This document shows positions 1-3,000 of a stretch of 15,861 nucleotides of DNA, piece by piece (within the stretch, counting starts at the first letter, position 1; each line of letters opens with the position of its first letter). The stretch comes from a virus. Taxonomy: Duplodnaviria > Heunggongvirae > Uroviricota > Caudoviricetes. The position numbers were made by a program. The stretch is taken from the IMG/VR virus record IMGVR_UViG_2667527998_000010, one strand, 5' to 3'.

Positions 1-3000
1 ATGAAAAAATTACTGCGTCTTTTTTTCCCGCTCTCGCTGCGGGTACGTTTTCTGTTGGCAACGGCAGCGGTAGTACTGGTGCTTTCGCTTGCCTACGGAA
101 TGGTCGCGCTGATCGGTTATAGCGTCAGTTTCGATAAAACTACGTTTCGGCTGTTACGTGGCGAGAGCAATCTGTTCTATACCCTTGCGCAGTGGGAAAA
201 CAATAAGTTGCATGTCGAGTTACCCGAAAATATCGACAAGCAAAGCCCCACCATGACGCTAATTTATGATGAGAACGGGCAGCTTTTATGGGCGCAACGT
301 GACGTGCCCTGGCTGATGAAAATGATCCAGCCTGACTGGCTGAAATCGAATGGTTTTCATGAAATTGAAGCGGATGTTAACGATACCAGCCTCTTGCTGA
401 GTGGAGATCATTCGATACAGCAACAGTTGCAGGAAGTGCGGGAAGATGATGACGACGCGGAGATGACCCACTCGGTGGCGGTAAACGTCTACCCGGCAAC
501 ATCGCGGATGCCAAAATTAACCATTGTGGTGGTGGATACCATTCCGGTGGAGCTAAAAAGTTCCTATATGGTCTGGAGCTGGTTTATCTATGTGCTCTCA
601 GCCAATCTGCTGTTAGTGATCCCGCTGCTGTGGGTCGCCGCCTGGTGGAGTTTACGCCCCATCGAAGCCCTGGCAAAAGAAGTCCGCGAACTGGAAGAAC
701 ATAACCGCGAATTGCTCAATCCAGCCACAACGCGAGAACTGACCAGTCTGGTACGAAACCTGAACCGATTGTTAAAAAGTGAACGCGAACGTTACGACAA
801 ATACCGTACGACGCTCACCGACCTGACCCATAGTCTGAAAACGCCACTGGCGGTGCTGCAAAGTACGCTGCGTTCTCTGCGTAGTGAAAAGATGAGCGTC
901 AGTGATGCTGAGCCGGTAATGCTGGAGCAAATCAGCCGCATTTCACAGCAAATTGGCTACTACCTGCATCGTGCCAGTATGCGCGGCGGGACATTGCTCA
1001 GCCGCGAGCTGCATCCGGTCGCCCCACTGCTGGACAATCTCACCTCAGCGCTGAACAAAGTGTATCAACGCAAAGGGGTCAATATCTCTCTCGATATTTC
1101 GCCAGAGATCAGCTTTGTCGGTGAGCAGAACGATTTTGTCGAGGTGATGGGCAACGTGCTGGATAATGCCTGTAAATATTGCCTCGAGTTTGTCGAAATT
1201 TCTGCAAGGCAAACCGACGAGCATCTCTATATTGTGGTCGAGGATGATGGCCCCGGTATTCCATTAAGCAAGCGAGAGGTCATTTTCGACCGTGGTCAAC
1301 GGGTTGATACTTTACGCCCTGGGCAAGGTGTAGGGCTGGCGGTAGCCCGCGAAATCACCGAGCAATATGAGGGTAAAATCGTCGCCGGAGAGAGCATGCT
1401 GGGCGGTGCGCGGATGGAGGTGATTTTTGGTCGCCAGCATTCTGCGCCGAAAGATGAATAAATATGTCCTTTTACCACTACATCAAGTCATTGATTCGAT
1501 CAAACAATTTTCATTGAAAAAGTGCCAAAAATCGCAAATTGACTACACCATTAACTACACCGTTCGGTGCACTGTATGAAACAACGTGGAACAAATAGAC
1601 ACAAGAAATATACAGGCGGGTAATCTTTCCAGGGGGAAGCGCACCAATTCATGAGGGGCGTTAATGTCGATATGGGGATCCCCATAACGGGGCTACCGGA
1701 TTTTTTTTCCGGTTAACCTTTAATCAGGCTGGTGGGTTTTACATACCCTTGATCACCGTAATGATGATCCAGATGTGCACCTTTTCCACCAATGGCGGAA
1801 AAGCTCCAACCGTAACGATGATCGCTATGGTTGCCTCGATGGTCTGCGTGGTCATTATGACCGTTCAGCCAGTGACCTTAATCAGAATTTTTCGCTAAAA
1901 AATGACGTTGGCCACGTCATCCGGAAAGCACAAAATCACGTCGATTTTTAATGAACGGTTAAACCGTCTTTTTGTCACGGTGTGTCACTGGTTGTCACTC
2001 TCCGTCACGATTGAGGTGGTGGTCATTCTGCCCGACCGCGCATCTTTGCGCTATCGGGAATATCAAACAGTTACCTCGCCGACTTCCTCAAATTGAGGTT
2101 TCCGAAAATATCAGAGCGGGTTAGCGATTAAGCTGACGAGTAATTAAACTGCGAAAATTTCGTAGTTTCTGAATATATTCCGGCCTGCTGGTTAACAGTC
2201 CTCAGATGTGAGGGATGTAGCCAGCGCAATTTTGCGCTTTGCTTTAATCTCAGTGAGTTACCGCCGTAACCGCTCCGGCTTCTTCCAGTGGTACGTGATT
2301 TTCTCCTTCTCCCGATACAGTTCAACGCGGCGATTGTAGGCCAGCATTTCCAGAACGCGGATCCGTATGTCGCGCATATCCGCATCATTAAGCTGGATAC
2401 CATCACGGCGCATCACCTCAGCAACAACACGCGCATAATTTTCGGCTGTCACGCTGTCCGGCTGCGTGGTCTGTTCGTCAGCCTGCTGGCTGATTCCAGA
2501 GACGCGGCGGATTAATCGCAGTATTTCGGCTTCTGTCATGCTGCTGACCTCATTACACCCCGCTAAATTCTTCCAGTTTCTGGCGGTGGCTGTCGCTTAT
2601 ATCAAAAGCAAAATCCTCATGCTCTGCCTGGAATGTACCAAACGCCATCAGCGCCGCTACGCTCGGGTCTATCTTGTTCGGTGATTTTTTCTTGTTCGGC
2701 TTGATATTGGCGTTCGCGTCACTCTGCATCACGACGTTACTCATCGACCAGGACAACACCGGATCGCCACGATGCACAATCACCCTGCGGTTAACAAAAA
2801 CTTCGAACGATTTCGCCGCCGGACTGAATCTGAGGTAGGTTTGCGGGAACGGCTCCACCTCAAAACCAGCCCCCTGTAATTGCGTCCTGAGATGCGTGGC
2901 GTTCCACGTATCAAAGCCCACCAGCCTGATATTAAATTTCTCCGCATCCTGCATGATGTCATCTCTGATCCGGTCGTAATCAATGCAGTCACCTGGCGTT

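Follow-up and report, generated by a model that had tools for sequence, protein, structure and literature searches.

In enterobacterial phage-inducible chromosomal islands (PICIs), the rightward transcription unit for late (packaging) functions ends with a conserved open reading frame (ORF) of 93 codons, here named ORF93. It was studied in a 15,861-nucleotide stretch of viral DNA (IMG/VR record IMGVR_UViG_2667527998_000010, here called the window), in which it follows the gene for the large terminase subunit (TerL) of a capsid-forming PICI (cf-PICI). ORF93 belongs to the shared PICI backbone, neither to the capsid-forming packaging module nor to the variable cargo, because the same end gene accompanies differing packaging modules, replication proteins and integrases and has a backbone-like composition. 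In function it is accessory, being dispensable according to published constructs, yet as an element of the backbone it is conserved and does not mark a variable slot. The whole reading, in which ORF93 is a late, non-structural and non-essential binder encoded by the backbone, is in our judgement evenly poised between right and wrong.

The genomic contexts of ORF93 were surveyed in 88 loci, and the upstream neighbour was typed in each. ORF93 is the last island gene, on the operon strand, in all 88, and its upstream neighbour is a Nu1-like small terminase subunit (TerS; 34 loci), the cf-PICI TerL (24), RppA (16), a 137-residue protein followed by unassigned sequence (7), a ClpP-protease/capsid fusion (6) or a Citrobacter protein of 153 residues (1). 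Within E. coli, the ORF93 proteins are 77-100% identical in amino acid sequence across at least six PICI packaging types (cf-PICI TerL, RppA, Nu1-like TerS, DUF1441, protease-capsid fusion and the type with the 137-residue protein). The Citrobacter homologue is 40% identical and also ends its PICI, after the 153-residue protein. Many E. coli genomes matched only ORF93 and some downstream DNA in megablast comparisons, and the similarity between island types began exactly at the ORF93 start codon. The integrases of the window and of L008 are only 25% identical, against 77% for their ORF93 proteins, and islands with ORF93 are integrated at phoQ/roxA, narP/yejO, beside mdtJI (efflux genes, a site identified from protein sequences), at rpoD/mug (Citrobacter) and inside prophage head genes. 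The sequence-only reading, an earlier account of this DNA, had noted the gene just after TerL and expected it to be expressed with the packaging genes; the change of upstream neighbour, the divergence of the integrases and the start of similarity at the ORF93 ATG speak against a tie to TerL in particular. In total, 1195 of 5426 complete E. coli genomes (22%) carry ORF93, in up to six copies per genome, including enterohaemorrhagic, uropathogenic and Nissle strains.

ORF93 is a protein-coding gene under purifying selection. Among 50 distinct nucleotide versions, the ratio of nonsynonymous to synonymous changes (dN/dS) was 0.22 in the ORF93 frame, above 1.2 in four of the other five frames and 0.31 in the remaining one, an antisense frame with the same wobble positions, and the variable sites were distributed over the three codon positions as 31/23/56. 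The length of ORF93 alone is not significant, because 38 ORFs in the window reach at least 85 codons. The gene proposed earlier at 2258-2539 is thus real, and it lies on the minus strand, which had been left unstated. Its distance from the TerL stop, put at 13 nt, is exact (2540-2552); on the minus strand this spacer reads TAA-TGAGGTCAGCAGC-ATG and contains a GAGG, in line with the good ribosome-binding site noted earlier. The proposed co-expression with the packaging genes is plausible from the 13-nt gap, the common strand, the own Shine-Dalgarno sequence and the lack of room for a terminator. ORF93 likewise starts close behind its upstream gene elsewhere: cf-PICI TerL is 13 nt away, the Citrobacter 153-residue protein 15 nt and DUF1441 2 nt, and a tblastn estimate for six loci put the distance from Nu1-like TerS at roughly 17-30 nt. 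In 58 of about 80 cf-type TerL loci ORF93 directly follows TerL. The GC content of ORF93 (0.546) and its GC content at third codon positions (GC3, 0.628) match those of TerL and portal genes (GC3, 0.62 and 0.66, respectively), and the DNA downstream is AT-richer.

Under the RefSeq label 'hypothetical protein', ORF93 is 100% identical to deposited E. coli and Shigella proteins (WP_000133415-type). It is a full-length member of PHROG 1561 (E 1.5e-55, residues 1-93 on profile positions 1-93 of 93), a family annotated as 'unknown function', and PHROGs gave it only families so annotated. The proteins of PHROG 1561 and of the WP_000133415 type form one family, full length, with c1505 of the island EcCICFT073 and the gene after terL in EcCIEDL933. 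Both of these are the last gene of their island, as is ORF93, and we see no difference between the three; ORF93 is therefore already known as an entity, listed as a hypothetical protein in two model islands that have been well studied, in one of which the gene has been cloned and deleted without comment. No Pfam match was obtained for ORF93 or for 11 members of its family, NCBIfam and PDB sequence searches with ORF93 gave none, and the PADLOC models matched in 0 families even at E values up to 10. The sequence-only reading had seen no likeness to any head or packaging component, an impression upheld by profile and structure-based searches, which returned only families of unknown function and no fold. 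Homology to head-completion, head-tail connector or packaging proteins was looked for specifically, and neither Pfam and PHROG models of these classes nor virion or packaging folds matched ORF93. An exhaustive phmmer search against 1.84 billion representatives clustered at 50% identity gave 37 matches, all of them close relatives or fragments, after two long proteins with 30% repetitive matches were disregarded. No paralogue was detected when the family was compared by hhalign with 253 ORFs of seven islands. Since a tblastn search of 50,697 phage genome records gave no match at E 1e-5, the family lives in satellites and not in phages; its taxonomic range is limited to Escherichia/Shigella, Citrobacter and Salmonella. 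ORF93 thus represents a narrow orphan family without a detectable relative of known function or fold.

The ORF93 protein (93 residues, 11.2 kDa, isoelectric point (pI) 9.5) is predicted to form helices at residues 3-14, 29-45 and 52-80, with a disordered acidic linker at 15-28. Its charge is split, residues 1-30 being acidic (pI 4.5) and residues 56-93 basic (pI 10.6). The family alignments show invariant residues G47, L50, N51, D54, I58, R59, R61 and L66 and an invariant basic C-terminal tail, Y83-x-W85-K-K-P-E-R-L-R-R. The conserved core is the C-terminal part of about 60 residues, a two-helix hairpin followed by the basic aromatic tail, as follows from the alignments and from a natural variant of 63 residues that retains only this core and tail (MLKHKKIESVIDEMARQLGHELNGQDKLVIRTKTAMVLAAKQRYRQRMEAPPYQWRKPDKLRR; locus L119, about 2 nt after TerL). 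This variant probably corresponds to phrog_7271, which has 63 positions and matches ORF93 at E 1e-4.

Published experiments on a close relative bear on the function of the gene. EcCICFT073 occupies the phoQ site, as does the island in the window, and its last gene is a 91%-identical homologue of ORF93. Mapping of the primers of Fillol-Salom et al. 2019 (PMC6739421, Table S5) onto CFT073 identified this homologue as c1505. The homologue, with its ribosome-binding site, is contained in the 'c1505' amplicon (locus L006, 3317-3690), whose pBAD18 clone (pJP2220) has the forward orientation, and the homology arms of 'c1504-07::cat' replace L006 3104-4001, the homologue included. Overexpressed pBAD18-c1505 was among the clones of which 'none of the other genes' reduced lambda plaques, and the c1503 (rppA) clone did interfere with lambda (PMC6739421). 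As its overexpression left lambda plaques unreduced, c1505 is not a lambda-interference factor. The c1504-07::cat island was used as the wild type in transfer assays mediated by lambda and phi80 (PMC6739421), and because this island transfers, c1505 is not needed for the induction, packaging, transfer and establishment of EcCICFT073.

For EcCIEDL933, all mutants of the packaging module lost transfer, except that of 'hypothetical gene 1792', which was severely affected (10.1101/2022.09.08.507074). When the genes are counted with the capsid gene as 1786, along the RefSeq gene order and not by the original locus tags, the small ORF that separates hnh from terS receives the number 1792, and ORF93 would receive 1795; the identification of ORF93 with gene 1792 was therefore rejected. 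We found no statement that gene 1795 of EcCIEDL933 was mutated.

The mechanism that we propose is that ORF93 would be made together with the packaging proteins after induction and would act as a small non-enzymatic binder, its basic tail docking on a partner common to all these islands. The candidate partner could be a host factor, a shared helper-phage component or nucleic acid. Such docking would adjust how the satellite's late stage runs or how well the satellite competes, and would not be required for particle formation. Taken alone, this binder mechanism is tentative, being in our estimate clearly more apt to fail than to hold. A precedent for it is Rpp of Gram-negative PICIs, which binds a helper protein (PMC6739421), a mechanism of the kind suggested here for ORF93. 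Both are small proteins of the PICI late region, and RppA adjoins ORF93 in the 16 RppA-type loci; in contrast, RppA is required for transfer and interferes with lambda, while the ORF93 homologue is dispensable and does not interfere.

Several observations weigh against the reading as a whole. The AlphaFold2 model of ORF93 is of medium confidence only (mean predicted local distance difference test score 66.6, and about 80 over residues 31-70). In 47 of the 88 loci the upstream gene and ORF93 are separated by at least 250-300 nt, so that co-transcription is not guaranteed there. ORF93 is absent from some cf-PICIs, one of which has a DUF3892 gene in its position. The dispensability was observed with one Rpp-type island and the helpers lambda and phi80, without an isogenic ORF93-positive control, and ORF93 may contribute quantitatively to transfer.

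The long gap in these 47 loci holds an inverted lambda-type cosN. It is the exact lambda cosN (GGGCGGCGACCT), about 80 nt upstream of the ORF93 start, located at L006 3298-3309 in EcCICFT073 and alike in the 46 other loci, which are of the Rpp, Nu1-like and 137-residue-protein types. The islands bearing it also carry a cosN in the same orientation upstream of the Rpp or TerS gene, and cf-type islands have neither. The non-essential 'cos2' described by Fillol-Salom et al. is presumably this inverted copy. The window has no lambda cosN, and a role of ORF93 as part of a cos site was ruled out on this ground and because selection acts at the protein level.

Among the alternatives, ORF93 might be a factor for packaging or maturation efficiency, which aids the steps involving terminase, prohead and DNA or head completion and is not strictly essential. 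The position is suggestive, since ORF93 always comes after morphogenesis or packaging genes, in many cases in tight coupling with TerL or a TerS-like gene. Small head and packaging accessory proteins such as gpFI and gpW of lambda are encoded near the terminase genes, and factors of the gpFI type are stimulatory but not absolutely required. In its size and its location with terminase and head genes ORF93 resembles gpFI and gpW, but it shares no sequence or fold similarity with them and is present also in islands without a terminase or portal of their own. The defects of such factors can be leaky, which would fit a transferable c1504-07::cat island, and gene 1792 of EcCIEDL933, with its partial transfer phenotype, illustrates that small accessory packaging proteins exist in these islands. 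Nevertheless, one protein, 77-100% identical, serves islands with their own HK97-type TerL and capsid, islands in which Rpp hijacks the lambda terminase and islands with only the protease-capsid fusion, and because these machines differ so much, direct contact of ORF93 with them is unlikely. With the lack of similarity to any head or packaging family and the 13 cf-PICIs embedded in prophage terL that have nothing in the ORF93 position, we regard the packaging role as unlikely.

The sequence-only reading placed the gene in a terminal slot of the kind used for cargo, and ORF93 could accordingly be a single-gene effector of anti-phage defence, interference or counter-defence at the 3' accessory end. 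Immune systems do sit at the 5' or 3' ends of PICIs (PMC11364771), so that the 3' end as an accessory and immune location stands as published (PMC11364771; 10.1101/2025.02.11.637232), and ORF93 is terminal, small, orphan and dispensable for transfer; a different gene, that of DUF3892, takes its position in other cf-PICIs. Like the 3'-end immune and accessory cargo (PMC11364771 and its ref. 12), it is non-essential for the island life cycle. The part of the proposal that fails is that ORF93 is swapped-in cargo: cargo is variable, whereas ORF93 is conserved in at least six PICI types, matches TerL and portal in composition, has no match in PADLOC and is coupled to the late operon. It also lacks a conserved promoter of its own, as the similarity between island types begins at the ATG, and a consensus promoter was not found in the EcCICFT073 gap upstream of the homologue. 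Since, in addition, the c1505 clone left lambda plaques unreduced, a defence role appears distinctly improbable.

A further alternative is that ORF93 is a DNA- or RNA-binding regulator, or a recombination accessory factor, for the region next to the attachment site (att). The basic C-terminal half would suit such a role, and so would the order of the excised circle, in which ORF93, about 0.7 kb, attP and int follow each other on one strand (10.79-kb circular record), as well as the region-specific palindromes and GTCAC iterons just downstream. However, ORF93 accompanies diverged integrases and several att sites, the known regulator and excisionase of these islands is AlpA (10.1101/2022.07.18.500453), which the window encodes itself, and no helix-turn-helix, AlpA or excisionase family of Pfam matched ORF93. 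The palindromes (37 of 62 loci) and the iterons (a subset of islands) are not strictly associated with ORF93, both are missing from EcCICFT073, and the c1504-07::cat island still gives transductants. This alternative is very improbable. That ORF93 is a spurious or decaying ORF without function can practically be dismissed: the hypothetical-only annotation and the lack of a reported phenotype would agree with it, but the dN/dS value, the excess of third-position changes, the hundreds of intact full-length copies in four genera and the persistence of ORF93 where the capsid gene of the window carries a nonsense codon all disagree.

Some narrower candidates were tried and rejected. A TerL-specific partner was ruled out by the varying upstream neighbour, a cognate excisionase by the 25% identity of the integrases, a homologue of TerS, Nu1 or Rpp by hhalign probabilities of at most 2% for the ORF93 alignment against RppA, Nu1-like TerS, the Citrobacter 153-residue protein and DUF1441, and a binder of the GTCAC iterons or palindromes by their only partial co-occurrence with ORF93.

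The element that carries ORF93 in the window is a cf-PICI of the E. coli O157:H7 EcCIEDL933 type inserted between phoQ and roxA, an assignment based on the gene organisation and on the phoQ-roxA site shared with the O157:H7 island. The window starts with phoQ (1-1461, plus strand), and the minus-strand island extends from the att core to the window end (Table 1). The 21-bp att repeat recurs beyond int in the related genome L001, with 0 chance matches expected, and a tandem 12-mer (ATTGACTACACC / ATTAACTACACC) lies within the att core region (1538-1561). Domain searches identified a DUF4222 protein and a D5-type primase besides integrase and AlpA. The morphogenesis genes encode an HK97-type capsid protein, a prohead protease, a portal, a head closure protein and a head-tail connector, and the packaging genes an HNH endonuclease (assigned from the 97%-identical L001, the window copy being partly masked by N), a P27-type TerS and TerL, with Pfam TerL_ATPase and TerL_nuclease domains (PHROG 9). 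The island thus has int, alpA, primase, capsid, prohead protease, portal, adaptors, HNH, TerS and TerL within about 15 kb and att repeats, as a cf-PICI should. An essentially identical copy is present in a Shigella flexneri chromosome (L002).

Table 1. Positions of ORF93 and of the features discussed with it in the window
Feature	Position	Strand	Remarks
ORF93	2258-2539	-	93 codons, ATG start; ORF calling and direct reading
Shine-Dalgarno sequence GAGG	2548-2551	-	8 nt before the ORF93 ATG; read off the sequence
TerL gene, upstream neighbour	2553-4214	-	PF20441, E 6.6e-51; PF03354, E 1e-25; phrog_9
att core, 21-bp direct repeat ACTACACCATTAACTACACCG	1542-1562	+	phoQ-proximal island end
Terminal mosaic	1563-2257	.	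Largely non-coding, GC 0.46; only small ORFs; similarity patchwork
Palindrome GCGCAATTTTGCGCT	2224-2238	.	20 nt after the ORF93 stop; second copy at 2038-2052
AlpA gene	14069-14257	-	PF05930, E 5e-18
Integrase gene, P4-type tyrosine	14632-15861	-	

Some observations concern the state of this and related elements. The capsid gene of the window (7846-9051, minus strand) has an in-frame TGG-to-TGA nonsense codon, W292*, at 8176-8178 relative to the intact 385-residue capsid of L001, and the same codon is found in the Shigella flexneri copy, which is 100% identical. Because of this codon capsid production is doubtful, and the window copy is probably unable to make capsids, though its ORF93 is intact. 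Through runs of N at 4546-4607, 5045-5191, 5455-5514 and 5738-5789, the TerS, HNH and head-tail adaptor genes are partly masked and their ORFs are translated with stretches of X; ORF93 is untouched by these runs. In L010 and 13 IMG/VR loci (e.g. L134 and L136-L138), cf-PICIs lie inside a prophage terL as helper-embedded satellites and stop about 526 nt after their own TerL, without ORF93. One circular record of 10,790 bp deposited as a 'plasmid' (L092, NZ_CP148328.1) is a complete PICI with int, alpA, primase, protease-capsid fusion, DUF1441 and ORF93, the last 2 nt after DUF1441. Around the circle ORF93 is followed after about 720 nt by int, on one strand throughout, and the record is apparently an excised or episomal satellite.

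The placing of ORF93 at the element end agrees with the position of the att core, 696 nt (about 700) from ORF93, with no ORF longer than ORF93 between the two. The true cargo slot of this element, between ORF93 and att, is essentially empty. Comparison of loci showed that short modules of the terminal mosaic are shuffled among PICIs, and in other loci the host genes begin 177-1000 nt past ORF93. An Rfam scan of 1400-2700 gave no match. Of 62 loci, 37 have one to three copies of the terminal palindrome (consensus GCGCA(W)(Y)TTTGCGCT; two copies in the window) downstream of ORF93, and the rest of the 742 kb in these loci has none; on the plus strand, a T-rich run comes after the 2224 copy, which looks like a terminator for convergent transcription. 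An iteron-like array of four GTCAC motifs at exact 10-nt spacing (TGTCAC-N4, four times; 1973-2008) is located about 250 nt past ORF93. Some islands of the cf, RppA and Nu1 types have this array, at distances from ORF93 that vary between 16 and 417 nt, which makes it a mobile module within the terminal mosaic. EcCICFT073 has neither palindrome nor iterons. A hydrophobic peptide (MTTQTIEATIAIIVTVGAFPPLVEKVHIWIIITVIKGM) is encoded by an ORF of 38 codons (1739-1855, minus strand), after which hairpins occur at 1668-1700. The ORF is the counterpart of the 'c1507' region, which was cloned in PMC6739421; about 20 of 172 loci have it intact and others have it truncated, and it may give a small membrane peptide, or nothing.

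For a specialist on satellites there is little here to surprise beyond one end gene common to all these island types, and ORF93 can serve in annotation as a marker of the right end of these islands. In a bolder version of the proposed mechanism, which we consider quite doubtful, the ORF93 family would be a PICI-wide effector of new fold, a small late protein that uses its invariant basic tail, Y-x-W-K-K-P-E-R-L-R-R, to capture a conserved factor of the host or helper phage, for instance to bias resources to the satellite or to disarm a host or competitor function. If true, this would account for the presence of ORF93 in satellites with entirely different packaging and in about one fifth of E. 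coli genomes. Islands bearing ORF93 are common in E. coli and mobilise both virulence regulators and genes for defence; should its role be discovered, ORF93 would be a component common to all enterobacterial PICIs beyond int, alpA and pri.

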